From contig JAKLFF010000004.1 of the NCBI GenBank assembly GCA_022711335.1, positions 10,592 through 74,591 of the forward strand: a stretch of DNA of 64,000 nt, written 5' to 3'. Positions 3,032 through 44,845 of the stretch are shown here, piece after piece. The DNA comes from Patescibacteria group bacterium (GTDB lineage Bacteria; Patescibacteriota; Minisyncoccia; Moranbacterales; UBA2206). The first letter of the stretch is position 1; every line of letters begins with the position of its first letter. A program made the position numbers and the translations under genes. The notes beneath the pieces are model-generated. The model had not been told where the DNA came from and ran no database searches. It worked only from the letters and a program-made list of their open reading frames with translations.

Positions 3032-4327
3032 TTAAAGCCTCTCCAGGAACTCAAATACTTTTTCATTCTCAAGAGTTCCCTTGCAATAGCTATACAATCT
3101 TTCCATATCCAAATTCTTCTCCATATTCCTAACATCTTTATAATACTTGAGGGTTTTGTTGATTTCTTCTTCTATTTCTTTTGTATCAGCTTTTATGTCT
3201 TCGTCTTTGGCGATTTGCCCAAGCGCCAGGGCGGAAATTATTCTTTTTTCCGCTTGAGGTTTCCAATCAGTTTTGAGATCCTCCTTGCTTTTTTTAATAT
3301 TAGCAAGATACTGGTCTATTGTCATTCCCATCGGGCTAATTTGATGTTCAAATTCATGAAGCATTTTTTCCGTTTCCTCCTTGACGAGAATTTCAGGAAG
3401 ATCCGTTTTTGAATTTTGGACGATACTGTCTAAAAATTCAGTTCTTCTGTTTTCTTTCATTTTATGCTCTTTCTCGTGTTCAAGCCCTTCTTTCAGGCTT
3501 TTTCGAAGCATTTCAAGATTTTCAAATTTGCCAAGGGATTTTGCAAAATCATTATTGATTTCCGGGGTCTGCCTTTCCTGAACTAAATTCATCTTGACCT
3601 TAAATGTAGCCGCTTTTCCAGCCAAATCTTTCTTGTGATAATCAGCCGGAAATGACAATTCGAATTCCTTTTCTTCCCCCTCTTTCATTCCGATTATATT
3701 TTCTTCAAATCCGGGAATAAAAACACCTTTTCCAATTATCAGCGGATGTTTCTCGCTCTTTCCATTTTCAATCGGCGCCCCGCCGACAGACACTTCAAAA
3801 TCAATTTCCACGCTGTCTCCTTTTTTCGCTTCGCGTCTGACTGTTACCAGCTTCACCCGGCTCGCGGCCAGTTTTTCAACTTCAAGATCAACATCCTTTT
3901 CATCAACCTGGCTTTCTTTTTTAGAAAATTCCTCGTTGATTTTTTTTATCTCTTTTTTGTAGGCTGGCTCTATTTTTATTTCCGGCATAATTGATACCGT
4001 TGCCTTATATCTAAGATCTTTTCCCTCTTCCATTTCCACTATTTCCACTTTAGGGCTGCCGATGACTTCCAATTTTTTTTTCTCCGCCAGCTGGCGGACA
4101 TATTCAACATAGCTCTTTCTGACCGCTTTTTCTGAAGCCTCATTGAGAATGGCTGCTTTTCCTATTTTTTGCTCTACGATATTTCTCGGCGCTTTTCCAG
4201 GACGAAAACCAGGAATTTTTATCTCTCCTGATAATTCTTCCGCCGCCTGGTCCAGATATTTTTTCCAATCCTCCCAAGACACCGCCAATTCAAATTCAAT
4301 TTGAGATTTAGGTAGTTTTTTGATCAT
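3032..4327 (-). CDS. tig: Trigger factor
   Basis: 431 aa; N-terminal ...GFRPGKAPRNIVEQK... ribosome-binding signature; the classic tig-clpP adjacency. Confidence 0.9.
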   Translation of the reverse strand: MIKKLPKSQIEFELAVSWEDWKKYLDQAAEELSGEIKIPGFRPGKAPRNIVEQKIGKAAILNEASEKAVRKSYVEYVRQLAEKKKLEVIGSPKVEIVEMEEGKDLRYKATVSIMPEIKIEPAYKKEIKKINEEFSKKESQVDEKDVDLEVEKLAASRVKLVTVRREAKKGDSVEIDFEVSVGGAPIENGKSEKHPLIIGKGVFIPGFEENIIGMKEGEEKEFELSFPADYHKKDLAGKAATFKVKMNLVQERQTPEINNDFAKSLGKFENLEMLRKSLKEGLEHEKEHKMKENRRTEFLDSIVQNSKTDLPEILVKEETEKMLHEFEHQISPMGMTIDQYLANIKKSKEDLKTDWKPQAEKRIISALALGQIAKDEDIKADTKEIEEEINKTLKYYKDVRNMEKNLDMERLYSYCKGTLENEKVFEFLERL

Positions 4328-4365
4328 AATTCAGGCTCTTAATTATAATTCTTCAATTTCATTGA

Positions 4366-6357
4366 TTACAATAACATCCCAACTATCAACAAAGCTACGA
4401 TATTCAGAATTTTTATCATCGGATTAATCGCCGGTCCGGCTGTGTCTTTGTAAGGATCGCCGACTGTATCTCCGGTCACCGCCGCCTGATGAGCGAAGCT
4501 TCCTTTTCCTCCATATTCTCCATTTTCAATATATTTTTTGGCGTTGTCCCAGGCTCCGCCTCCGCTTGTCATGGAAACCGCTACAAAAATTCCAGTGATA
4601 ATCGATCCAACCAAAAGCCCTCCAAGAGCATGCACGCCCAGAATGAATCCGACCAAGATCGGTACAACAACCGGAATAAGCGCTGGCACAATCATTTCGC
4701 TAATAGCCGCCTTAGTTACAATATCGACTGTTCTTCCGTAATCTGGGTTTTCCGTTCCCGCCATAATCCCGGGCTTTTCTTTAAACTGATTGCGCACTTC
4801 TTCTACGACTGACCCAGCTGCTCTTCCTACCGCCTGCATAGAAAGCGCTCCAAAATAATACGGTAGAAGGCCGCCAATGAAAAGTCCGGCAAGAACTTTT
4901 GGATCGTTGATTAAAAATTGAAACGATCCGGGTATGCTATAGGTAAAGTCAGAAAATAGAACTAGCGCCGCAAGGGCTGCGCTGCCAATTGCATAGCCCT
5001 TCGTTACTGCTTTTGTCGTATTTCCAACCGCATCCAGCGGATCAGTAATATTCCTAACATCTTCTCCCATTTCCGCCATTTCAGCAATTCCTCCCGCATT
5101 GTCTGTAATCGGACCATAAGAATCAATTGCCACAATTATTCCCGCCATGGAAAGCATGGCCATTGCCGCAATTGAAACCCCATAAATTCCGGCTAGTTCA
5201 TAAGCGCCTAGAGTTGCCGCAACAATAACAATAACCGGCCAGGCAGTCGATTTCATGGAAACTGCCAATCCTGCGATAACGTTAGTGCCGTGTCCCGTCT
5301 GGGATGCTTTGGCAATATCTTTCACCGGCTGATATTTAGTCGAGGTGTAATATTCAGTGATAATTACCATCGCCGCTGTCACTGCGAGCCCGATAAGGGA
5401 AGCCAGGTATAAATTCAGCGTTTCATATTTTCCATTGCCAAACATAAGATAATCAGTCGCCGGATAAAAAGCAATCGCCGCTAAAACTCCTGAAACAATA
5501 AGGCCCTTATAAAGCGCGCCCATTATGTTTGGGTTTTTATCCTCTCCTAATTTTACAAAGAAAGTTCCAACTATTGAAGTTATGATTGAAATCGCGCCAA
5601 GAACCAAAGGAAAAATAATAGCATTCGGAAAAGTCTTGAAAAGCAAAGACCCTAGAATCATTGTTGCAATCGAAGTTACCGCGTAAGTTTCAAAAAGATC
5701 AGCGGCCATTCCGGCGCAATCTCCGACATTATCCCCAACATTGTCCGCAATCACAGCTGGATTTCTTGGATCATCTTCCGGAATTCCCGCTTCCACTTTT
5801 CCAACCAAATCCGCTCCCACATCGGCCGCTTTCGTGAAAATTCCTCCTCCAAGCCGCGCGAAAATTGAAATCAAAGATCCGCCGAATCCAAAACCAATAA
5901 GCGCATGAATATCTTTGGTAACAAAATAAAATCCAGCCGTTCCGAGAAGTCCAAGTCCGACAACCAAAAGTCCAGTTACGCTGCCGCCTTGAAAAGCCAC
6001 CGTAAGAGCCTTTTGCATTCCAGATCGCGCCGCTTCCGCTGTTCGCACATTCGCCCGCACAGAAACATTCATGCCGATATAGCCAGTCAAAGCTGAAAGA
6101 AACGCTCCGATAATAAAAGCAACGGCTGTCATCCATCCCAGAGACGGAATGAATCCGATAACAATAAACAATACAGCCGCCACCATCGCTACTGTCTTAT
6201 ACTGGCGGTTAAGATAGGCTTTCGCCCCTTCCTGGATAGCTTTCGCAATCGATTGCATTTTTTCATTTCCAGAAGGCAGTTTTATCACTTTTTCAATTAG
6301 AATGATGCCATAGATTATGGCCAGTGCTGCTCCCCCTAGCACAAATAGAGTCACCAT
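4366..6357 (-). CDS. hppA: Membrane-bound H+/Na+-translocating pyrophosphatase
   Basis: 663 aa polytopic protein with the PPase motifs [19 protein letters not shown] and DNVGDNVGD. Confidence 0.9.
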
Positions 6358-8353: not shown

Positions 8354-8442
8354 CCAACATTACCAAATAGTTGGTAATAAGGCTTATTTTTGAGCCTTTC
8401 GAGGCTCGTTGACAATTAAATATTAGATTGGGAGGAAAGAAG

Positions 8443-9153
8443 ATGGCAAGAAAAACTGCAAATCCAGAAGCGCCAAGAAACGAAAACGAAGAACCGAAAA
8501 TGGATCGACAAGCGGAAAAAAAACGTGGTTTTTTGTGGATGATGATCCGGGAAAATATCCAAGATGTCGCTCTGGGAATTTTGCTGGTTCTGGGTTTCAA
8601 AAAACCATCCCAGAGTGGAACTGTCCAGTTTCAAGGACAAGAAAGGCAAGTTCCAGATTGGTTCCTGTCGGCCTTCCCGGGACTTACCAGAGATGATGAG
8701 AATGAGTATAATTTAGCACTTGATTCCCATCCTGATCCAAAAGCCCGAATCGCAGCGGAAGAATTTTGGGAGATGGTAAAAAAAGATGAACTTTATGATG
8801 AAGTCAGATATGTTGTAAACATTGTCGAGCTTCGTCGTGAGTTTATCGAACGCCTAAGGCGTCCCGCACCAAAGGATGAATCCGGCGGACGGCTGGGGTT
8901 TGACCCATTGACACAACGCGATTCTATAAATATTTTTTTCAACAGGCTCCTCGAAGAAAAGAGCAGGGGAGGTTCACCTGAAGAGATTTACAAACGGCAG
9001 AAAGAGATAGCACTAAAAAGAAAACTCCTGCCAAAGAAACACCTGTTTAAACGTTTATTAGAAAACAAAGCCAGCGCAATCATGTATTTCTTTGCAACAT
9101 TGTTCTTTGCGTTTGGCTTTATGTATTTCATTCTCTATTGGATTTTCGGATAA
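8443..9153 (+). CDS. Hypothetical protein with a C-terminal TM anchor
   Basis: ATG preceded by GGGAGGAAAG; no family recognised. Confidence 0.5.
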   Translation: MARKTANPEAPRNENEEPKMDRQAEKKRGFLWMMIRENIQDVALGILLVLGFKKPSQSGTVQFQGQERQVPDWFLSAFPGLTRDDENEYNLALDSHPDPKARIAAEEFWEMVKKDELYDEVRYVVNIVELRREFIERLRRPAPKDESGGRLGFDPLTQRDSINIFFNRLLEEKSRGGSPEEIYKRQKEIALKRKLLPKKHLFKRLLENKASAIMYFFATLFFAFGFMYFILYWIFG

Positions 9154-9171: not shown

Positions 9172-10185
9172 ATGAGAGCATGGCTAGCAGCACAATGGGC
9201 GATGTTCCAGGCAAGTTTTCCAAATGCTAGCGCCTGGATTCTTAGAAACCTTAGAGCAATCCTTGCTCTGGTTGGCGGGATTATTTTCTTCTCGCTGGCC
9301 ATTCACAGCTGCACCTCCTCATCAAGCGGGACACCTGCTCCCGGAGCCGGTTGGTTTTTTATGAAACTGGCTTTTGTTGGATTGATTGCAGCAGCGGTCA
9401 TTTCACGGGACAGGCCATATCTGGCCTGGACTCTTGCCGGACTGGCTGGACTATTTTTCCTGGTAATTCTTGGAAAAATGGACAGTCTTTTTGGCTGGAC
9501 TACGCTTGGCTTGCCGCTTCTTGCGGCCGCCGGAGTGTGGGGATGGAACAGAACCGATGGCAGAACCCGATCATTTCTTGGGTTCGCGTCCGGAGTTGTA
9601 ATTTCATTTTGGCTATATCTATTTCTCCAAAACAATATGAGCTTCAAGCTGGATTTTCTCGGTGATCGAATTACTAACTCAGAACTTTTGATCATCGGTT
9701 TTCTAGCTATCGGACTTTTTGCCTTTGCCACATGGAAAAGAAGCAAGGTATTTTACCTGATTTCTTTTCTTATATTAGCTTCGTGGTTAGGCAATGAAGT
9801 CTTCAAGGAGATAGCAGATCGCTATCCTAGCATGTTAAAACTCTCGGTTCCCAGCGGAATTACCGAATTAGGCAATGCGACCAACGAACGGCTGAAAATT
9901 ATTGCCGACGAAGTAAAAAACCCCAAAAAAATCAAGAAAGAAGAGAAAAAAGAAACTTATTCCCTAACCCTCTACGGAATTGTTTCCGAAGAGGTTTCTC
10001 TTTCCCCGGGAACGTGGAAAGTCTCCCGGGATTGGAAGTTAGCAGAATACCGGCTCAGAGAATGGGCAGACTATCGCCCTATCACCGAGGAGATAAAGAT
10101 CTCCAAAAAGTCGGATGTGTTTTTTAGAAACAAAGACAAATCTGGGAAAAGCAATGTCTATTCCCAGATCATTGTCTCGAACTGA
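9172..10185 (+). CDS. Hypothetical polytopic membrane protein
   Basis: 337 aa with at least 8 hydrophobic helices; RBS AAGGAAAGGGG. Confidence 0.5.
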   Translation: MRAWLAAQWAMFQASFPNASAWILRNLRAILALVGGIIFFSLAIHSCTSSSSGTPAPGAGWFFMKLAFVGLIAAAVISRDRPYLAWTLAGLAGLFFLVILGKMDSLFGWTTLGLPLLAAAGVWGWNRTDGRTRSFLGFASGVVISFWLYLFLQNNMSFKLDFLGDRITNSELLIIGFLAIGLFAFATWKRSKVFYLISFLILASWLGNEVFKEIADRYPSMLKLSVPSGITELGNATNERLKIIADEVKNPKKIKKEEKKETYSLTLYGIVSEEVSLSPGTWKVSRDWKLAEYRLREWADYRPITEEIKISKKSDVFFRNKDKSGKSNVYSQIIVSN

Positions 10186-10244: not shown

Positions 10245-10946
10245 TCAGAAAATCATGTTGGATCCCCGAAGAGCCGAATCAATGGCCTGGATTATTACAA
10301 ATCCGGAAAGCGCCACAATAACCCCAATGATAGAATATATCAAATTCTTCTTGGCTGTTTCCATCATTTTTTCATCCCCGGCCGCCGCGAAATATTGGAT
10401 TCCAGAAACCACGAAAGCTAAAATGGCCAGCATTCCAAATATCCCCAAAATCCACCCTAAAACATTAGCCAAAATCGCTCGGATGCCTCCCGAAGGGCTG
10501 GGCAAGCCTGTAGCTGGAATAGTCAATCCGCTTTTTGAGGTTGATGATGACTTGCCGCTGCTGGAGCTGGAAGAAGTAGAGTTTGTTCCTGATGATGTAT
10601 TGCTGCTTGAGCTTTCATCTGAACTTTCAACTGTATAGCATCCCATATATTGTTCTCCAAAAGACTCATATTGGCGGCAATGTCCGGATAAGCCGCTGCT
10701 ATCAGTGCAGGCATCCTCTTCATTTGCGCATCCGTCCTGTTTGATGACAGGCACATAGCATCCTATCCTTTCCTCACCGAAAGATTCATAAGCCCGGCAA
10801 TGGCCGACTTGGCCGTCTCTCGTGCAAGCGGTCTCTTCTGTCTGACATCCGTCTTCGCTCACAATTGCATATGCCGGAGAAATAAAAAACAGAGAGAGAA
10901 ATAAAAGCGGAAAAAATTGCATAAAAAATACTTTTTTGTTTTTCAT
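10245..10946 (-). CDS. TrbC/VirB2-type (T4SS pilin-like, PF18895-like) protein with a duplicated Cys-rich domain and Ser-rich linker
   Basis: Signal peptide; two about 35-aa Cys repeats (DGC..E.AC....G..GHCR.YESFGE...GCY); poly-Ser linker; C-terminal TM-[AAGDEK..TAKKNLIYSIIGVIVAL]-TM module. Confidence 0.65.
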   Translation of the reverse strand: MKNKKVFFMQFFPLLFLSLFFISPAYAIVSEDGCQTEETACTRDGQVGHCRAYESFGEERIGCYVPVIKQDGCANEEDACTDSSGLSGHCRQYESFGEQYMGCYTVESSDESSSSNTSSGTNSTSSSSSSGKSSSTSKSGLTIPATGLPSPSGGIRAILANVLGWILGIFGMLAILAFVVSGIQYFAAAGDEKMMETAKKNLIYSIIGVIVALSGFVIIQAIDSALRGSNMIF

Positions 10947-10950
10947 TGTT

Positions 10951-11373
10951 TTAAAAATAAAGGCCCGCGCTTAAGATCAAATAAACAGTTTTTATCAGAA
11001 CCACTCCGGAAAGGCCGACGATTATGCCAATAATTGAATAACTCATGGCGTTCTTGGCTCTTTTCATTTGATCATCGTCTCCAGCGCTAAGAAGATACAA
11101 TATTCCTGAAATTACAAATCCCAAAATTCCCAAAAATCCAAAAAGATAAAGTATCCATTGAAGAATGCCAACGACGATTCCAGTAACCGATCCTCCAGGC
11201 AATCCAAAATAGGAAAGATAACCTGGATTCCAGCCGGAAGTGGAATAATTGCCGCTGCCCGGAGCAAGATATCTCCATTCCCATTCAGCCGAAGAAACAA
11301 ATGGAACTAGAATAAGCGCCAAAGAAAAAAATACTGCAAATGCCCTAAAGCTTATTTTGTTTTTTATTTTCAT
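10951..11373 (-). CDS. TrbC/VirB2-type pilin-like protein
   Basis: Signal peptide then ...ILYLLSAGDDDQMKRAKNAMSYSIIGIIVGL...; paralog of the neighbouring genes. Confidence 0.65.
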   Translation of the reverse strand: MKIKNKISFRAFAVFFSLALILVPFVSSAEWEWRYLAPGSGNYSTSGWNPGYLSYFGLPGGSVTGIVVGILQWILYLFGFLGILGFVISGILYLLSAGDDDQMKRAKNAMSYSIIGIIVGLSGVVLIKTVYLILSAGLYF

Positions 11374-11412
11374 TTTTTAGTCCTTAATTTTTCTTTTTTT
11401 ATTATACCACAA

Positions 11413-11451
11413 ATAAAAAAAACGACCAGTTTTTTTCTGGCTCGTTTTTTT
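11413..11451. terminator. Bidirectional intrinsic terminator
   Basis: Arms CGACCAG and CTGGCTCG (one-base bulge), flanked by A8 on one side and T7 on the other. Confidence 0.6.
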
Positions 11452-11473
11452 GTTATTGAAAATATTTTTTGGT

Positions 11474-11836
11474 TTATAGCCTGTTCCCCGCGCTAAGAAG
11501 ATTGGCGGCAAAACGAAGAGCTACTACTCCGGCAATCGCGACAATTACTCCAATGATGGAATAGAGCATAGCGTTTTTGGCTTTCGTAATCCGATCGTCA
11601 TCTCCGGCTGCTGTCAAATAGAGAATTCCGGCAATCGCAAATCCGATTATTCCCAAAAATCCGACAATGTAGAGCAGCCATTGGGTAACGCTTATAATTA
11701 TCTCGGTTACTGATCCTTCCGGGACGCCTGTTCCAGCTGGAATTCCAAACTGCGCGCCTGCCGCCACTGGCAAAGAAAGGGCCAGAACAAAAGCAAATGA
11801 AACTATTGATTTAATTTTATTTTTCATAACTTGCAC
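11474..11836 (-). CDS. TrbC/VirB2-type pilin-like protein
   Basis: Signal peptide then ...ILYLTAAGDDDRITKAKNAMLYSIIGVIVAIAG... Confidence 0.65.
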   Translation of the reverse strand: MQVMKNKIKSIVSFAFVLALSLPVAAGAQFGIPAGTGVPEGSVTEIIISVTQWLLYIVGFLGIIGFAIAGILYLTAAGDDDRITKAKNAMLYSIIGVIVAIAGVVALRFAANLLSAGNRL

Positions 11837-11894
11837 CTCCCTTCTTTTTGACTGTTAAGAGATATTAACAGAAATTTTTATTTTTATTTTGTAT

Positions 11895-12671
11895 CTACTG
11901 CCCTGAAATTAAACTTGATATCTCATTAATAATGACCACTGCCGAAAGCGCTACAACAATTCCAATTATGGCATAAACAATAATTTTCTTTCCGGTTTCA
12001 ATTCTCTTTTCATCCCCATAAGCGGTGAGATACATTCCTCCGCCGACCACTAGGGATATTATAGCGATAATTCCGAAGATTGACAACAGAAGATTCAAAA
12101 TATTTATGCCAATTTGATAAAGAGTCGGCCCAGTAAGGCCCGCGGTATTCACCCCGCTTGAGCCTCCAAGGATATTTATGATTTCCGTGAGAAACGACGG
12201 CGCCGCAAGAACAATGGCCAAGCCGATAACCGCCCCGGTCCAGCAGAGCTTCGCCCGCGTTATCATCTTTTCGCTTCCGGCTGAAAGCATATAAAGGATT
12301 CCGCCGAGCACTATAAAAATGATGGCTACCACCGCAACGATACTTCGAAGGCTTGTCAGAAATTTATTCAAAAACTCGCTGACTGTCTTTATGCCAAGAG
12401 GATTGGGAAATTCTGCCGTAGCGCTGCTACCGCTTGCAGTGCTAGCAGCACCAGAACTTGAGCTACTTGATTTGCAATCAGAGGGACATGAACCATCTAT
12501 TATCGTTCCCGCACAATCATAAATCTGTTGGCTAGTTGTCGCATTGCTACATTGAGAACCTTCGGTAATAATACAGCATTTAGTATCAGCACTGGCAGTA
12601 TTAAATATAATTCCAAATAAAAAAACTAAACTACAAACAAAACTATATAACAATATTTTTTTATTTTTCAT
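11895..12671 (-). CDS. TrbC/VirB2-type pilin-like protein with two tandem pilin modules
   Basis: Signal peptide; Cys-rich N-terminus; Ser-rich linker; two copies of the TM-AGSEK/YGDEK-TM module. Confidence 0.6.
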   Translation of the reverse strand: MKNKKILLYSFVCSLVFLFGIIFNTASADTKCCIITEGSQCSNATTSQQIYDCAGTIIDGSCPSDCKSSSSSSGAASTASGSSATAEFPNPLGIKTVSEFLNKFLTSLRSIVAVVAIIFIVLGGILYMLSAGSEKMITRAKLCWTGAVIGLAIVLAAPSFLTEIINILGGSSGVNTAGLTGPTLYQIGINILNLLLSIFGIIAIISLVVGGGMYLTAYGDEKRIETGKKIIVYAIIGIVVALSAVVIINEISSLISGQ

Positions 12672-12688
12672 TCTAATAAAATAAATAG

Positions 12689-14077
12689 TTACCTAATTAA
12701 TTGTCCCGCTCTGGCCGCCGCGGTTTCGAGCGCTTCATGGACTGTCAGCTGCCCGCGGTTGACTTTGTCGATCATTTCAGAAAATATCGTTTCAATCGCT
12801 TCCGGATCAACTTGCCTCCATGATTTAGCGATCAGATTGCCTTCGGCAAACGCTCCGATTTTCGGATCAGATTTCTGGATTTCAATAAGATCGCGCCGGG
12901 CTGCCGGTTTTCCGGTGTTTTTTGCATAAACCGACGCCGGATCATAATTGGAATTAGCCGTCTGCGTCGTTCCCGCCACACTTCTCTTTATCTCAATCGG
13001 AGTTTCTGACTTTGTTGCCAGATAAGCCAGAAATTTCCAAGCTTCTTCAGCTCTTATATCATTAGTTACATTAGTTGAATTCTTGGATGAAATTTTATTT
13101 TTGGCCACCCCATACGCCCAATAATTCGCAAAATTCACCGGAATTCCTTCAGCAAACTGCGGAATGGAAACTGCCGCGAAATTCAATTTCGGCGATTTGC
13201 TTTTTATCGTATCCATGTGCCAGGAATAATTGAACATCATTCCCAGATTCCCTTCCGAAAAGGCGTCGATGGAATAATGCATGTCCCTGTTCCAGGAATA
13301 TTTGCTCGAGCCGGATCTTGCAAAATCAATATAAAAAGTCAGCGCGTTTTCCCCGGAGGAAATCATTTTTCCGTTCACCATCTGGATCTGATTGAAATTT
13401 ATGCTTCCGTCATCGGCAACCATTTTTGTTCCGCTCTGGAGCATCAGCATAGAGAGAATGTCTGTTGACCGGTTTATATTATAGGCCGTCCCAAGAGCTG
13501 CGCCCGATCTTGAAATTTGCCCGTTTCCCTCTATTTTGGTAAGTTTCTCAACATCGGTTATAAATTCGCTCCAATTTTTCGGAGGAGCGGTTATAGAGGC
13601 CGCATTAAAAAGATCTTTATTATAATACAGCCCGAGACAATCCACTGAAAGCGGCGCCGCCCATACTTTCCCGTCACTCAAAAAATCATCAGCTACGACA
13701 TCCACAAAATCTTTTCGAAGCTTCTGCTCATTCAAAACCTCCTGCGGGGCAGAAACTATTTTATCCTGGAACTTGGGAAGCCAGGTGTTGTGGAGAAGAA
13801 ATACATCCGGCCCTTGTCCAGCCGCCATTGCTTCTATCAGTTCTTTTTCATATGTATCAGCAGAAAGCTTTTTATATTCGATGCTTTCAATGTTGGGGTT
13901 GATTTTCTTGTAATTTTCAAAAATCTCCGGAAAAACTGAACTGTCGTCTGCAAATCCCCAGACTTCCAGATTAATCCGGTATTTTTTCGGATTGCTTTCT
14001 TTGCATCCGCATCCGGAAAGCACAAAAACTCCTAGAATTAAAAAAAACGATATTACTGGTTTTAATTTAATTTTCAT
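12689..14077 (-). CDS. ABC transporter substrate-binding lipoprotein (family 1, sugar-type); no permease or ATPase nearby
   Basis: Lipobox LSGCGC; 462 aa with the solute-binding fold; flanking genes are unrelated. Confidence 0.6.
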   Translation of the reverse strand: MKIKLKPVISFFLILGVFVLSGCGCKESNPKKYRINLEVWGFADDSSVFPEIFENYKKINPNIESIEYKKLSADTYEKELIEAMAAGQGPDVFLLHNTWLPKFQDKIVSAPQEVLNEQKLRKDFVDVVADDFLSDGKVWAAPLSVDCLGLYYNKDLFNAASITAPPKNWSEFITDVEKLTKIEGNGQISRSGAALGTAYNINRSTDILSMLMLQSGTKMVADDGSINFNQIQMVNGKMISSGENALTFYIDFARSGSSKYSWNRDMHYSIDAFSEGNLGMMFNYSWHMDTIKSKSPKLNFAAVSIPQFAEGIPVNFANYWAYGVAKNKISSKNSTNVTNDIRAEEAWKFLAYLATKSETPIEIKRSVAGTTQTANSNYDPASVYAKNTGKPAARRDLIEIQKSDPKIGAFAEGNLIAKSWRQVDPEAIETIFSEMIDKVNRGQLTVHEALETAAARAGQLIR

Positions 14078-14082
14078 TATTT

Positions 14083-14652
14083 TTATTTTCCCAGCACCAA
14101 GCCATAATGGAAGTTGCTGGCTTCTATTTCCTTTACGATTTTTAATTTGTTTTTTTGGGCTATTTTAATCAGGTCTTTTTTGGAAATTTTATTTTTTCTG
14201 TCCGGACCGATAGGCAGATCTTTTTCTTCCCATTCAATGATGAGCATTTTTCCTTTTTTTCCGAGAATTCTCTCGGCTTCCAAAAGTATCCTATCTTTGC
14301 CGCTATTTTGAAAAAGCATATTAACCGCAACCACCCAATCGACACTCCCGTTTCTAAGGCCCGACCCTTTTTCTGCTTCAAGGTTGGCTTTCTTAGTCAT
14401 TATATTGGTAATTCCTTCTATTCTCGCGCGGCTTTCGATCACTTCTAGTTTTTCTCTGCGAACATCCAAAGCATACACAATTCCGTCAGGACATATTTTT
14501 TTGGCTATTGGAACGGCAAAATATCCCGTACCGCAACCGAAGTTGGCCACCTGCATTCCATTTTCAAAATCCAGGCTTTCTATTATCACTTCCGGTGCTA
14601 TAAATTTTGATCCGTATTCGATAGCCTTTGATAATTTTTTATTTTTGTCCAT
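14083..14652 (-). CDS. Class I SAM-dependent methyltransferase
   Basis: Motif I ANFGCGTGYFAVPIA. Confidence 0.65.
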   Translation of the reverse strand: MDKNKKLSKAIEYGSKFIAPEVIIESLDFENGMQVANFGCGTGYFAVPIAKKICPDGIVYALDVRREKLEVIESRARIEGITNIMTKKANLEAEKGSGLRNGSVDWVVAVNMLFQNSGKDRILLEAERILGKKGKMLIIEWEEKDLPIGPDRKNKISKKDLIKIAQKNKLKIVKEIEASNFHYGLVLGK

Positions 14653-14698
14653 CGCGTTCTTATTTTACAATAAAAAGCAAAAATCGACAAACCTTTTC

Positions 14699-14788
14699 TG
14701 GCGGAAGTGGGAGGATTCGAACCTCCGGTACCGTTTCCAGTACAACAGTTTTCGAGACTGCCCGATTAAACCACTCTCGCACACTTCC
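14699..14788 (-). tRNA. tRNA-Ser(CGA)
   Basis: 90 nt; long variable arm; anticodon loop CUCGAAA; T-arm GGAGGTTCGAATCCTCC; CCA encoded. Confidence 0.8.
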
Positions 14789-14885
14789 GTATTCTAAATC
14801 TATACAATTTTACGCTTCCAATCAATAGCGCGCCTTTTTAGAAATATCTGATATAATAAAACCAGCTAAAATATAAGATAAAAAA

Positions 14886-15527
14886 ATGGGGCTGCTTTTC
14901 AAAAGAAATCTGGGAGGAAAAAACATTTCGTTTAAAAAACGAGTGGCTGATAGCGCAATTTCCAACAGCTATATAAGGGAAACAATAAAAAAATCGAGAT
15001 CAAAATTCGCTCTGGGAAAATCCGGAGCCGCAAAAAGAACTGAAAGAGATATTATAAAAGCTCAAGCAGGCGGACTGGATCTGAAAGAAACTCACGAAAT
15101 AATCCAAAAAAGAATCGCTGCTGGAGATATCACAAAAGAAAAAGCTAAAAAGCTGGCTATCGAATGGGGACTTACTGAAGAAAGGTTTCATAAATTCAAA
15201 GATATATCTGAATGCAAAAATATCCAGAAAAGGCAGGAATGGATGGAAAAAGCGCAAAAAAAATCAAATACTCAAAAAAATGGGCCGGCCAATGCCCAAA
15301 ACAGCCCGCCAAAAGGATTTTCAGCCAGGACAAATTTAAATAAATCAGCAGTTTTTCCAGCGAATATTGATTCGCAGCCGGCGCTAAAAATTGCCAGCCA
15401 AAGAAAACTTGCTAATCTGGAAACACAAAATAACGAAGAGCCGGTAAAACCAAAAAATATATGGGAAATTATAAACAAGCAAAAACACCGCGATGCTTTC
15501 CCGGAGGATAGCCAGAAAACCGCTTGA
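14886..15527 (+). CDS. Hypothetical K-rich protein
   Basis: 213 aa; no motif recognised. Confidence 0.4.
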   Translation: MGLLFKRNLGGKNISFKKRVADSAISNSYIRETIKKSRSKFALGKSGAAKRTERDIIKAQAGGLDLKETHEIIQKRIAAGDITKEKAKKLAIEWGLTEERFHKFKDISECKNIQKRQEWMEKAQKKSNTQKNGPANAQNSPPKGFSARTNLNKSAVFPANIDSQPALKIASQRKLANLETQNNEEPVKPKNIWEIINKQKHRDAFPEDSQKTA

Positions 15528-15626
15528 ATCTTTATTTCATGGCAATGCATTAGCGCGGGGTTTACACAAACCAATATAAATGATAGCCTGAAATAAGCAC
15601 TTTTCGGGAACAATTATTCAACGCTT

Positions 15627-16127
15627 ATGCCAAATTTTCAACAATTTATTCAAAACAACTGGCTTATTCTTCTGCAAGTTTTTCTTTTTCTTCTTTTTTT
15701 TATTTTAATCTGGAATATCGTTCTGACCCTTAAAATGAAAAAAATTAAGAAAAATATCCAGGAAATGTTTTCTGGGAACAAAGTCACTAATCTTGAAGAA
15801 CTTTTGCTTGGACAAGCTAAGAATATCCAGATGTTAGACAAAGACATCCAGGAACTCTATGACATTTCCAACCAAATCAATTCCTTGGCCGGAAAGGGGC
15901 TTCACAAAGTAGGAATGGTAAGATTCAATCCCTTCAAAGATGTCGGCGGCGATCAGAGTTTCGCCATCGCGCTTCTCAATGGAAAAGGAAACGGCTTGAC
16001 GATAAGCTCGCTCTATTCTCGAGAAGGAACTCGGATTTATTCCAAATCCATAACATCCGGAGAATCAGAAAAGCATCCGCTTACCGAAGAAGAAAAAGAA
16101 GCTATTAAAATCGCGGAAAAATCATAA
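15627..16127 (+). CDS. DUF4446-like protein with an N-terminal TM
   Basis: ...[30 protein letters not shown]... pattern. Confidence 0.5.
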
Positions 16128-24291: not shown

Positions 24292-25233
24292 TTAATTCTT
24301 ATTTAACAGGGTCAAGCAATCAATAATTTCAGAAAAATCTTCCGGAAGCTCCGCTGAAAAGCTATACTTCTTGCCGAATAAGCTAAGCTCTATGCTCCTT
24401 GCATGGAGCATTTGTCTTTTAGCAAATAATCCGTCCTTGCTATTCTTTAGCTTATATATTTTATCGCCTATTATAGGATGGCCGATAGATTTCATATGTA
24501 CTCGAATTTGATGCATTCGTCCCGTTTTCGGACTGGCTTCAATCAGAGAATATTTTTTATATTTTTTTATTACTCCATACTCGGTCAGAGCCAGCCTTAT
24601 TTTTGTCCTGGTTTTTCTTCCGGCAATTATCTGTTTTTTATAGTTGCTTGAACGCGCAATTGATTTTTCAATAGTTCCTTTGCTATTTTCCATTTTTCCA
24701 TAAACTATGGCCAGATATTTTTTTTCAACTTCCCTGTTTTTAAACTTTTTTTTAAGTTCCTCAAAAGTCTTTTGATTTCTGGCAACAATCATGACTCCGC
24801 TCGTATCCTTGTCTAGCCTATGGACAATCCCGGGACGAATTTCGGGTTCATCGCCAACAGATTTAATTCCAGGAAATTCATAAACCAACCAGTTAGCCAG
24901 GGTGTTAGTTTCACTTAATTTTGAAGGATGGACTGAAATCCCAGCTGGCTTATTGATAGCAATAATATTTTTATCCTGATATATGATTTCAAATTTTATA
25001 TTTTTATTGGGAACTAGCTTTCCTGATTCTTTTTCAAAATTAACTTCTATTTCATCGTTTTCTTTCAAAATATAGCTTGGTTTTATTTTTTTATTATTGG
25101 TTAAAACATTGCCATCTTTTATCTTCCTGGTTATCTCTCCACGGCTGATTTTTTCATTAAAAAAAACTTCCTCTTTGAGGAATTTATCAATTCTTTTTCC
25201 TGAACTATTTTTTTCTACAGTTATATTTTTCAT
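24292..25233 (-). CDS. RluA-family pseudouridine synthase with an N-terminal S4 domain (RluD-like)
   Basis: HRLDKDTSGVMIVARN; the true start is the ATG (MKNITVEK...) at 25231-25233; the longer track ORF runs into two tRNA genes. Confidence 0.8.
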   Translation of the reverse strand: MKNITVEKNSSGKRIDKFLKEEVFFNEKISRGEITRKIKDGNVLTNNKKIKPSYILKENDEIEVNFEKESGKLVPNKNIKFEIIYQDKNIIAINKPAGISVHPSKLSETNTLANWLVYEFPGIKSVGDEPEIRPGIVHRLDKDTSGVMIVARNQKTFEELKKKFKNREVEKKYLAIVYGKMENSKGTIEKSIARSSNYKKQIIAGRKTRTKIRLALTEYGVIKKYKKYSLIEASPKTGRMHQIRVHMKSIGHPIIGDKIYKLKNSKDGLFAKRQMLHARSIELSLFGKKYSFSAELPEDFSEIIDCLTLLNKN

Positions 25234-25235
25234 CG

Positions 25236-25319
25236 TGCCCAGAAGAGGACTCGAACCTCCAATCCCTTGCGGGAACCAGTTCCTAAGACTGGCGCGTATA
25301 CCAATTCCGCCATCTGGGC
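25236..25319 (-). tRNA. tRNA-Leu(TAG)
   Basis: 84 nt; long variable arm; anticodon loop CUUAGGA. Confidence 0.75.
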
Positions 25320-25331
25320 ATTTGCAAAGCG

Positions 25332-25415
25332 TGCCTTGAGCGAGACTCGAACTCGCAATCCCTTGCGGGAACATGCTCCTGAAGCATGCGCGTATACCAA
25401 TTCCGCCACCAAGGC
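25332..25415 (-). tRNA. tRNA-Leu(CAG)
   Basis: 84 nt; long variable arm; anticodon loop UUCAGGA. Confidence 0.75.
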
Positions 25416-42864: not shown

Positions 42865-43140
42865 TTAATTTTGATTTTGCAAATTCCCTTGCCCCTGAAA
42901 ACCGCTTTTCATTTGGCCGGTTACGTCTTCAAGCGATTTTTTTTGATCCTTAAACTGCTCCAGAATTTGGGGATTCGGAGTTATCTCAGAAGCCGTATTT
43001 TTCTTATTTTGCGCCACAATTGACACTATCCAGATAGCAACAACAAAAACCATTGAAATAGAGACCCACATCCAAACATAGCGAATGCGGATATACTCCG
43101 GCTTTTGGCGAATTTCATCAATTTTGTCTTGCAATCCCAT
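42865..43140 (-). CDS. Hypothetical small membrane protein
   Basis: 91 aa with one TM helix. Confidence 0.4.
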   Translation of the reverse strand: MGLQDKIDEIRQKPEYIRIRYVWMWVSISMVFVVAIWIVSIVAQNKKNTASEITPNPQILEQFKDQKKSLEDVTGQMKSGFQGQGNLQNQN

Positions 43141-43225
43141 TGTTTTACGAAATACGAAATGAGCGAAATATGAAGCATTCTATTTATTATTTCGTAGTTC
43201 GTTAATTTCGTATTTCGTAAAGTCT
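43141..43225. repeat. AT-rich palindrome of about 85 bp (TTACGAAATACGAAAT ... ATTTCGTATTTCGTAA)
   Basis: Near-perfect inverted repeat. Confidence 0.55.
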
Positions 43226-43883
43226 ATTCTATCCCCATCAGCACCACTTCCATACTTTTTTCATCGATGTCTTTCTTTTTTATATTAAGCTTGGAAAATT
43301 TTGTTCTGGGACAATTTCCCATTTCATTGCAAAATTTCTTTTCATCGTCAACGTCTATATTAGACCCGTTTATCTTGTAGTGCATTGGGATTATAATTTT
43401 CGGCTCGATCTTTTTTATAATATCCACCGCCTTTTTGCCATCAATAGTATATTTTCCGCCAATCGGAATCATGAGAATATCCACGCCATTTATATCTTCC
43501 AGCTGCTTTTCTGTGAGGTCGCATCCCAGATCTCCCATATGGCAAACCCGCATATCTTCACTTTCAAAAACGAAAATAGTATTGAGGCCTTGTTCCGCAC
43601 CTTGTTTATTATCATGAAATGAAGTAATTCCGACAATATTTATGCCCTTAACTGAATATTCCCCGGGAATATTAACAATATACGGTTCGCCTTTTATGGC
43701 TTCGATATTGTTGTGATCATGATGATCATGCGTAGAAAGCACCAGATCAGCGCTGCCCTGGGGCGGGCGAAGGCCGATGGATTTGTCAAAGGGATCAATA
43801 AAAAGCGCCACATCCTGCTGGCCTCTTCCTTCAGGCTTTGTGGTTATTTTAAAGCAGGAATGGCCGTAATATTGGATATTCAT
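43224..43883 (-). CDS. MBL-fold metallo-hydrolase
   Basis: STHDHHDHN motif. Confidence 0.7.
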   Translation of the reverse strand: MNIQYYGHSCFKITTKPEGRGQQDVALFIDPFDKSIGLRPPQGSADLVLSTHDHHDHNNIEAIKGEPYIVNIPGEYSVKGINIVGITSFHDNKQGAEQGLNTIFVFESEDMRVCHMGDLGCDLTEKQLEDINGVDILMIPIGGKYTIDGKKAVDIIKKIEPKIIIPMHYKINGSNIDVDDEKKFCNEMGNCPRTKFSKLNIKKKDIDEKSMEVVLMGIE

Positions 43884-44140
43884 ATAAGAAGATGTGATTT
43901 ATTACTAACTTATCCTATCATAAAAAAATATGTGTGTCGAGATTCGTCCGAATTGACTAATAGGCTTTTTTGCTCTAGTTTTAATGCAGATTAAAAATTT
44001 CCAGGGAGAAGGAGGCTTTGGATTTTAAAATGGTTCATTAATAACTGAGTAATTCGAAAAATTTTCGGTTTTCATATACATGAAACAATGGTGGTAATTA
44101 TCAAAAAACATAAGTTTTCCCAAAAATAAGGAGACTAGAC

Positions 44141-44845
44141 ATGGACAGCAAAAAAAAGAACTTCATTCGTTCAATTTTTAAGTATGGTAGAATTGAAATT
44201 CGTGATGTGGATGGTGGCCAGGAGCCGTTTCTTTACAGCACAAAGAATCACGGTCCCGGCTATGTCGATGTGAAAGGGGGAGTTGGTATTGATGAGTTTT
44301 TTGAACCAGCTCTTGATCTTCTTGCCGACATAATCGTGCAAGATCAAATTCCTATTGACATTGTAATTGGCATGATGACCGGCGGAGCCCTTCCTGGTTA
44401 TCGTCTCAAACAACATCTTCAAGAGCGCCTTAATAAGAGAATTGTGTATATCTACCAGCGTGGCGCACGAAAAGAAGGCGGGCACGCCGAACTCGACACA
44501 GGTGATCGTAATAACTGCCATATACAGGAAGGCTGTTACGGGCTTGTAGTCGAAGAGCTGGTAAATTTTGCAGGAACAACCACTAACGGCGTTCTCTATG
44601 AGCGCAATGTTAAGAAAAGAATCGTTGATCACGCGGCCACAATTCTTTTCTACAAAAACCCCGTGGCAATCGAACGGCTTAAAGAAAACAGCATCACTCT
44701 CCATTGGGTTGTTGCGCTTCCGGAAGTTTTGGATCTTGGTTTTCAAGAAGGCTATATTAACCAAAAACAATTCGATCAATATACAGCCTTCCTCCAAAAT
44801 CCAAAAACATGGAATGAAAGTCGCGGATACGAATTCTTCGGATAA
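44141..44845 (+). CDS. Type I phosphoribosyltransferase, orotate-PRTase-like
   Basis: PRPP-binding-like GLVVEELVNFAGTTTNG; N-terminal orotate-PRTase-like segment. Confidence 0.5.
   Translation: MDSKKKNFIRSIFKYGRIEIRDVDGGQEPFLYSTKNHGPGYVDVKGGVGIDEFFEPALDLLADIIVQDQIPIDIVIGMMTGGALPGYRLKQHLQERLNKRIVYIYQRGARKEGGHAELDTGDRNNCHIQEGCYGLVVEELVNFAGTTTNGVLYERNVKKRIVDHAATILFYKNPVAIERLKENSITLHWVVALPEVLDLGFQEGYINQKQFDQYTAFLQNPKTWNESRGYEFFG

Follow-up and report, generated by a model that had tools for sequence, protein, structure and literature searches.

The window analysed here, a stretch of 64,000 nucleotides from contig JAKLFF010000004.1 (assembly GCA_022711335.1), contains on its minus strand what is probably a chromosomal operon of Candidatus Moranbacteria (class Paceibacteria) for the VirB2-type pilus subunit set of a type IV secretion system (T4SS), together with a dedicated solute-binding lipoprotein (SBP, for solute-binding protein). 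The genes for a methyltransferase (MTase), the SBP and four pilins, which we call P4, P3, P2 and P1, follow one another head to tail in this order, with gaps of 5, 17, 58, 100 and 4 nt. The original prediction, made from the sequence of the window, had recognised four consecutive minus-strand genes for TrbC/VirB2-type pilin-like proteins at 10245-12671, and all four open reading frames (ORFs) were found there. It had also placed the lipoprotein gene downstream of the array; that gene, however, precedes the array on the same strand, with its end 17 nt from P4. Both the pairing of the SBP gene with the pilin genes and the positional order of the latter were shown to be conserved across about 130 species-level or metagenomic loci, as detailed below.

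Family assignment and architecture of the four pilins

All four proteins scored above the gathering threshold (26.6 bits) of PF18895, the T4SS_pilin family of Pfam, and P4 also exceeded the cut-off of 27.9 bits of the TrbC/VirB2 profile PF04956 (Table 1); precomputed PF04956 matches are present on many P4 homologues. The pilin-like identity proposed originally was borne out by this search: judged by sequence, all four proteins were shown to belong to the T4SS_pilin/TrbC family. The best NCBIfam match, again for all four, was NF045849, the family of the Mbov_0395 pilin-like protein of a Mycoplasma integrative and conjugative element (ICE). The scores for P1 to P4 (27.6, 22.2, 28.7 and 28.6 bits) are below the cut-off of 40 bits, so that none of the four is a member of that family.

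The topology of the pilins was assessed with a heuristic that combines hydropathy and the -3/-1 rule. The first 10 residues of each protein include three or four Lys/Arg and are followed by a hydrophobic h-region and by a predicted AXA-type cleavage site (AYA↓IV, SSA↓EW, AGA↓QF and ASA↓DT, one per pilin). Hydropathy and PF18895 also located in all four a C-terminal module, a pair of strongly hydrophobic helices with a connecting loop that reads A/S-A/Y-G-D/S-D/E-D/K-x4-A/G-K. Thus, both the Sec signal peptides and the common transmembrane-charged loop-transmembrane module of the original prediction were recovered, the former heuristically. The array comprises five such modules, which are 27-53% identical in pairwise comparisons. 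At the DNA level, similarity among the modules is confined to a 68-nt segment of about 70% identity, which indicates that the duplications are old, and no sign of recent duplication or gene conversion was seen among the pilin genes. A patescibacterial VirB2 array has been defined as 2-11 pilin genes, in tandem or with one non-pilin gene between them, of low pairwise identity (PMC12102498); the four adjacent genes, with their five modules, form an array in this sense.

AlphaFold2 (AF2) models of the pilins showed hairpins, with a block-averaged predicted local distance difference test (pLDDT) score of 72-93. In the model of P3 there is one helical hairpin, formed by residues 43-75 and 80-119, and we regard P3 as the candidate major subunit. 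The P2 module is 53% identical to that of P3. P4 is more elaborate: its signal peptide is followed by a head with six Cys, a Ser-rich linker (50% Ser), the motif F-x-N-P and then modules 1 and 2. That P4 contains two pilin modules follows from its match to PF18895 in two separate stretches, and the AF2 model agrees with the tandem arrangement predicted originally, in that it has four long helices (residues 97-129, 134-168, 184-216 and 221-256); the head and the linker are disordered in the model. We found 280 homologues with the P4 architecture, nearly all from Moranbacteria or Paceibacteria. The family keeps the CC-C-C-C-C pattern of the head, together with an invariant F-x-N-P just before the first hairpin. 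Sequence comparison showed no relationship between the heads of P4 and P1.

P1, the last protein of the array, had been predicted to carry a duplicated 4-Cys domain and a poly-Ser linker, and both features stood up to analysis. Units A and B of the head aligned with a score of 128, as compared with 24.3 ± 5.0 for shuffled sequences, and none of 2000 shuffles reached 128 (z score and Ser content in Table 1). The duplication is also seen in the DNA, as a 61-nt repeat of 70% identity with a spacing of 120 nt. The poly-Ser tract is not a slippage-prone repeat. Three P1 orthologues (72-83% identity) retain all eight Cys, whereas the Ser/Gly/Asp linker varies in both sequence and length among the same three proteins. 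That the Cys are kept while the linker drifts argues for a real, folded and disulfide-bonded head. When 1.84 billion representative proteins were searched exhaustively, the P1 head turned up in one close orthologue only; two further matches were spurious, one being due to a low-complexity repeat and the other to an FMN-bind-like repeat. With a single true match, the possibility that the head is a known or widespread domain was rejected, and the head is thus lineage-specific.

Among six public annotations of identical DNA (L001-L006; related loci are numbered with this prefix throughout), only one has P1 as a single gene of 233 aa. The other five show at this position a 77-aa ORF in a different frame and a 118-aa antisense ORF. 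We considered variation of P1 between strains and rejected it, because the 2.9-kb pilin region is 100% identical across the six contigs, which come from six different samples. The missing calls are therefore a gene-caller artefact. It follows that decorated pilins are under-counted in censuses that rest on called genes.

The transcription unit probably begins with the MTase gene. The terminator-like hairpin between P3 and P2 (Table 1) may attenuate transcription of the distal genes, and P2 is preceded by an extended -10 sequence (TGGTATAAT). When compared with shuffled sequences, the promoter and terminator scans showed no enrichment (seven terminators found vs 5.6 ± 2.4 expected).

Conserved linkage of the SBP gene and its relation to T4SS genes

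The protein encoded upstream of P4 matched, in addition to PF01547 (Table 1), the solute-binding profile PF13416 (72 bits), and sugar-binding proteins in the PDB are among its distant relatives. It has a lipobox, LSG-C23, and the LSGC motif is retained in 60 of 65 orthologues. In an alignment of 27 sequences, 43 columns were invariant, about 14 of them aromatic, a pattern that fits a real and conserved ligand site. The neighbours of the SBP gene in the window are the MTase and the pilin genes and not genes for a cognate permease or ATPase. When 144 loci were searched for an ATP-binding cassette (ABC) permease beside the SBP gene, 11 polytopic ORFs were found within 3 kb. No BPD_transp_1 domain was detected in the eight proteins scanned, namely seven of those 11 and the protein with four transmembrane segments that comes after VirB4 in L033.

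The linkage between the SBP and pilin genes was examined in two sets of loci. For the pilin-seeded set, one genome per species was scanned with an alignment of double pilins, which gave 74 loci, or 77 with L007-L009; these were analysed with profiles built from the window's own proteins. For the SBP-seeded set, metagenome contigs were scanned with an SBP alignment, which gave 80 loci with SBPs of 33-56% identity. In 61 of the 77 pilin-seeded loci, an SBP orthologue and a pilin gene are no more than 400 bp apart (median about 28 bp), and the exceptions were mostly contig ends or loci in which the SBP gene is 2-4 kb off. The two genes are on the same strand in nearly all loci and divergent in two (L061 and L063). 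Starting from the SBP, a pilin gene was found no more than 400 bp downstream in 67 loci, 11 loci end too soon and two have none in this range; a directly downstream pilin gene is thus present in 97% (67/69) of the assessable loci. Moreover, the pair is kept in 21 loci that have no infB, DUF4446, MTase or nusA gene in their 10-kb flanks, and it survives both inversion (L061, L063) and internal relocation (L049, L064). An MTase orthologue was directly upstream of the SBP gene in 42 of 65 related loci, and the linkage of the MTase to the array is looser than that of the SBP. We conclude that the SBP gene is the dedicated, conserved lead gene of the pilin array.

Across the related loci the array itself has a conserved order: double pilin, P3-type, P2-type and P1-type. 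Positional orthologues are 50-64% identical for the P3 type, 42-51% for the P2 type and 41-69% for the module of the P1 type. The total length of the P1-type protein ranges from 117 to 459 aa, and thus the last position of the array carries a variable head. Of 145 related loci, 83 encode a double-module pilin. That each array position has its own conserved orthologue suggests a division of labour rather than simple antigenic variation.

A direct connection to T4SS genes was found in two relatives, L094 (on a 288-kb contig) and L033 (on a 104-kb contig). In both, the genes for the MTase, the SBP, one or more pilins, a PrgI/VirB3-like protein, a conserved protein of about 230 aa (X229) and a VirB4-type ATPase follow one another on one strand. 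The PrgI proteins matched PF12666 with 39-40 bits against a cut-off of 27, and the ATPase matched P-loop_TraG (1.5e-28) as well as AAA_10; the VirB4 of this clade has no strict Walker-A motif. In L095 and L097, prgI comes directly after the pilin genes and is followed by the contig end. The gene string of L094 occupies the same chromosomal site as the array of the window, after infB and DUF4446. No other evidence presented here ties the SBP-pilin module to a T4SS as strongly as the contiguity seen in L033 and L094. Our comparison suggests that in most Moranbacteria the module is separated from the ATPase genes. VirB4 is reported in 13 of the 15 Moranbacteria genomes listed first in Table S1 of a published census, and in about 40% of the assemblies that have both, the pilin genes are apart from virB4 (PMC12102498).

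The related loci showed several other features. Multi-module fused pilins occur in L077 and L079 (two triple-module proteins) and in L134 (a four-module protein of 382 aa), and L127 (1005 aa), L130 (907 aa) and L077/L079 (1659 aa) encode very large proteins with one pilin module at the end. Genes for PilB-type (T2SSE) ATPases are located a few kb from the arrays of L075 (7722-10754), L044 (14978-16654) and L082 (8290-9939), the one of L075 coding for 1010 aa with two T2SSE domains in tandem. In L031, L035, L041 and L045, a plus-strand ORF between the SBP and pilin genes matched the IF-2 of the window with E < 1e-5, possibly because of low-complexity sequence. In L033, a comM-like Mg-chelatase gene after the T4SS genes (14547-16075) is split into overlapping ORFs of 153 and 404 aa, which may represent a frameshift or an assembly error.

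Proposed mechanism, alternative explanations and genomic context

For the pilus that the array probably encodes, we infer the following course of assembly. Each pilin would be exported by the Sec pathway and cleaved at its AXA site, and the cleaved pilins would be pooled in the membrane as alpha-hairpins, the Lys/Arg loop facing the cytoplasm and the two termini the outside. Extraction and polymerisation would then be the work of a machine driven by VirB4, the genes for which would be located elsewhere in the genome. The bulk of the filament would be made of P3 and P2, and P4 would enter as a covalent dimer, its topology being compatible with such an insertion. The disulfide-bonded Cys heads of P4 and P1, carried on flexible and possibly O-glycosylated Ser-rich linkers, would be displayed on the filament surface, where they could act as fast-evolving host-contact modules. 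The SBP, with its many invariant aromatic and acidic residues, would act at the surface of the cell or of the pilus, where it would bind a small ligand that is conserved and probably a glycan, and would couple the capture or sensing of a host-derived ligand to the pilus.

A bolder form of this proposal is that the SBP is a working part of the T4SS pilus, not of an ABC importer, and that together with the Cys-headed pilins it captures or senses a host-derived glycan. We put this forward tentatively and consider it unlikely. The SBP could be a lipid-anchored receptor at the base of the pilus, or could even reside within the VirB2-type protein-phospholipid lattice. If so, the pilus would acquire nutrients or host signals rather than exporting.

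Several observations weigh against the assignment of the array to a T4SS pilus with a dedicated SBP. No gene for VirB4, the type IV coupling protein (T4CP/VirD4), PrgI/VirB3 or VirB6 was found within about 80 kb around the array, that is, in the window and in identical contigs that reach about 10 kb past its left end and about 6 kb past its right end. The search combined Pfam scans of all sizeable ORFs, which in the window gave only housekeeping genes, with the annotations of the identical contigs and six-frame jackhmmer searches, in which the clade-specific VirB4, PrgI and their neighbour (the L094 proteins) served as queries; the three approaches agree with the original prediction that neither VirB4 nor VirD4 is encoded inside the window. 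About 140 of the related arrays in the comparative loci likewise have no adjacent VirB4. P1, P2 and P3 had no match to PF04956 at E ≤ 1 in the Pfam profile search. A Foldseek search against the PDB returned only generic hairpins, with E > 1, and a sequence-profile search had zero matches among PDB sequences. Fold comparison is therefore uninformative, and the pilin assignment rests on sequence profiles and gene context. Gene linkage, moreover, is the one line of evidence from which we infer the role of the SBP. To our knowledge, a T4SS pilus has never been observed in any patescibacterium.

That most arrays are unlinked to virB4 would also be expected if the PF18895 hairpin were a C-terminal membrane anchor and the array a set of surface proteins, some with Cys-rich heads or, in relatives, very large ectodomains, located beside a surface lipoprotein and independent of any T4SS. 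The fold is indeed a generic hairpin, and 16% of the single-module members have more than 100 aa before the module, some of them as many as 907-1659 aa (L127, L130, L077, L079); heads of that size are hard to fit in a VirB2-type lattice. Every array, however, has two to four minimal pilins of 115-145 aa, which, with almost no ectodomain, would be senseless as pure anchors. In addition, sequence profiles tie the family to TrbC/VirB2, the module of L033 and L094 is in one gene string with prgI and virB4, and a Saccharibacteria array sits inside an essential T4SS cluster. With these points set against it, an anchor function is unlikely. We think it more unlikely still that the adjacency of the SBP and pilin genes is a merely inherited gene order, with no functional coupling, and that the SBP serves an ABC sugar importer encoded elsewhere. 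The region of infB, rbfA, nusA, tig and clpP is syntenic across Moranbacteria, and the SBP is a regular MalE-like SBP_bac_1 protein, both as this explanation would have it. The pair nevertheless persists where the flanking markers are missing and through inversions and relocations, the pilins remain directly downstream in nearly all assessable SBP-seeded loci, down to 33% identity, the two genes are separated on the same strand by a few tens of bp, and no permease was found among the scanned neighbours at the 144 loci.

Finally, the array could be a decaying, non-functional remnant of a lost T4SS, as the absence of machinery genes within about 80 kb might suggest; according to Table S1 of the census, VirB4 is missing from some Moranbacteria genomes (PMC12102498). 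The four ORFs are intact, however, and the 2.9-kb region is the same, base for base, in six independent metagenome contigs. Positional orthologues are 40-69% identical across dozens of species, and P1 keeps its eight Cys while its linker drifts. A relic is thus highly improbable, and we retain a pilus subunit set with a dedicated SBP as the probable function of the operon.

The window is otherwise ordinary chromosome, with tig, clpP, the gene for an H+-pyrophosphatase, nusA, infB, gyrA, ftsH, pcrA and 15 tRNA genes. A search of 72,556 annotated plasmids for relatives gave zero matches. Two genes for membrane proteins, U1 and U2 (Table 1), had been described as lying upstream of the array. Both, however, are plus-strand genes that run towards the 3' end of P1, and are therefore not upstream. 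Apart from the window, the U1/U2 pair occurs in just three species-level loci (L018, L027 and L071). We considered U1 and U2 as T4SS parts, such as VirB6, and rejected this, given the lack of a Pfam match, the small number of U2 homologues and the occurrence in just those three loci; both are lineage-specific bystanders. A protein identical to U2 is annotated at NCBI as a Candidatus Moranbacteria bacterium hypothetical protein, P5262_04210, encoded on a 216-kb contig. Other loci have at the same position unrelated polytopic membrane proteins, which fall into at least three families and lack any Pfam match. These showed no profile similarity to U1 or U2 (hhalign probability 10-21%), and a profile scan found no TrbL/VirB6 among the other polytopic proteins that follow arrays.

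A gene for a PMT-family glycosyltransferase (protein O-mannosyltransferase-like) is located at 699-2342 of the window, about 8 kb from the array. In L041, a PMT-family gene (4231-6051) lies between the SBP and pilin genes, and L045 has an ORF of similar size there. These enzymes could be related to the Ser/Thr-rich linkers of the pilins. GyrA genes upstream of the SBP gene contain an intein with a LAGLIDADG domain in two metagenomic relatives (L117, 3-3737; L165, 1167-4922). Around 43000-44200 of the window, a region of predominantly minus-strand genes gives way to one of predominantly plus-strand genes, and the fall of the cumulative GC skew comes to an end. A replication origin may be located here, although there is no dnaA gene nearby. 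The longest ORF for a pseudouridine synthase (24292-25374) overlaps two tRNA-Leu genes on the same strand (25235-25319 and 25331-25415), and hence its true start must be further downstream.

Table 1. Features of the SBP-pilin operon and of the adjoining genes, in window coordinates
Feature	Position (nt)	Strand	Remarks
MTase, class I S-adenosylmethionine-dependent methyltransferase	14083..14652	-	matches Methyltransf_31, _25, _11
SBP, MalE-like solute-binding lipoprotein (SBP_bac_1)	12689..14077	-	PF01547 98 bits
P4, fused double pilin, 258 aa	11895..12671	-	PF18895 69 bits in two stretches; PF04956 31.4 bits
P4 6-Cys head	12471-12587	-	pattern CC-C-C-C-C
P4 pilin module 1	12189-12386	-	PF18895 stretch
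P4 pilin module 2	11904-12122	-	PF18895 stretch
P3, minimal single-module pilin, 120 aa, GTG start	11474..11836	-	PF18895 43.1 bits
Terminator-like hairpin and T-run, between P3 and P2	11425..11441	-	consensus-scan match, weak evidence
P2, single-module pilin, 140 aa, short Trp/Tyr/Gly-rich N-terminal segment	10951..11373	-	PF18895 36.1 bits
P1, decorated pilin, 233 aa	10245..10946	-	PF18895 47 bits; internal duplication z = 20.6
P1 4-Cys unit A	10749-10865	-	residues 28-66
P1 4-Cys unit B	10629-10748	-	residues 67-106
P1 Ser-rich linker	10527-10628	-	57% Ser
P1 pilin module	10287-10487	-	PF18895
U2, membrane protein	9172-10185	+	no Pfam match; 9 homologues
U1, membrane protein	8428-9153	+	no Pfam match

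Comparison with known systems

For the ultrasmall Patescibacteria, 441 arrays of 2-11 VirB2-like pilin genes are on record, from 383 assemblies (PMC12102498), and Southlakia epibionticum has an essential six-pilin array inside its T4SS cluster (PMC10633639, PMC12857230). As such arrays were already published, the original prediction was a correct identification of an array of a published kind. The array described here shares with those of the census the defining Pfam families, PF18895 and PF04956, the tandem arrangement of divergent paralogues (27-53% identity here vs a reported mean of 25% and maximum of 54%) and a chromosomal location with no relaxase nearby (PMC12102498). Unlike the census arrays, it is at least several tens of kb away from virB4, and it has an SBP lead gene, a fused double pilin in first position and a pilin with a duplicated 4-Cys head in last position. 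The main text of the census paper does not mention an SBP, and fused or decorated pilins were not found in that main text, searched by word stem for fusion only (PMC12102498). In a limited literature search, we found no paper that combines Patescibacteria, VirB2 and a solute-binding protein.

TrbC of RP4, VirB2 of Agrobacterium and TraA of F have the same signal peptide and hydrophobic hairpin with a short charged loop. In contrast to these proteins, P1-P3 reach the threshold of the sister family PF18895 only, their host is monoderm and the genes have no plasmid or mobile-element context. We know of no classical conjugative pilin with an N-terminal Cys head or a tandem fusion. Several divergent pilin genes side by side, as here, are also found in the tandem virB2 paralogues of Bartonella and Anaplasma, which are thought to diversify host contact or antigenicity (PMC12102498). 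Those arrays, however, are inside virB operons of diderm intracellular pathogens, and have neither an SBP nor fused pilins. The Mbov_0395/ICE_MMCAP2_0565 protein of Mycoplasma ICEs is likewise a VirB2-like hairpin protein, encoded in a wall-less monoderm and belonging to an MPF-FATA-type system.

Proteins of the SBP fold are known to serve T4SSs through ligand sensing, as do ChvE, with VirA, in Agrobacterium and PrgZ of pCF10. The likeness to the SBP described here is one of analogy only, since ChvE and PrgZ are members of different SBP families, have no pilin genes beside their own and act via a kinase or the Opp permease, and no such partner was seen at the array. A 2025 review discusses patescibacterial T4SSs, and uptake of molecules from the host has been speculated upon (PMC12857230). 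On the role of the essential patescibacterial T4SS, the SBP offers a concrete and testable handle, as it hardly ever occurs without a pilin array, and this in a lineage that has otherwise parted the array from the ATPase genes. The array thus seems to represent a new subtype, with an SBP lead gene, fused multi-module pilins and a fixed order that ends in a variable head, and its lead gene may be a clue to the function of the pilus.

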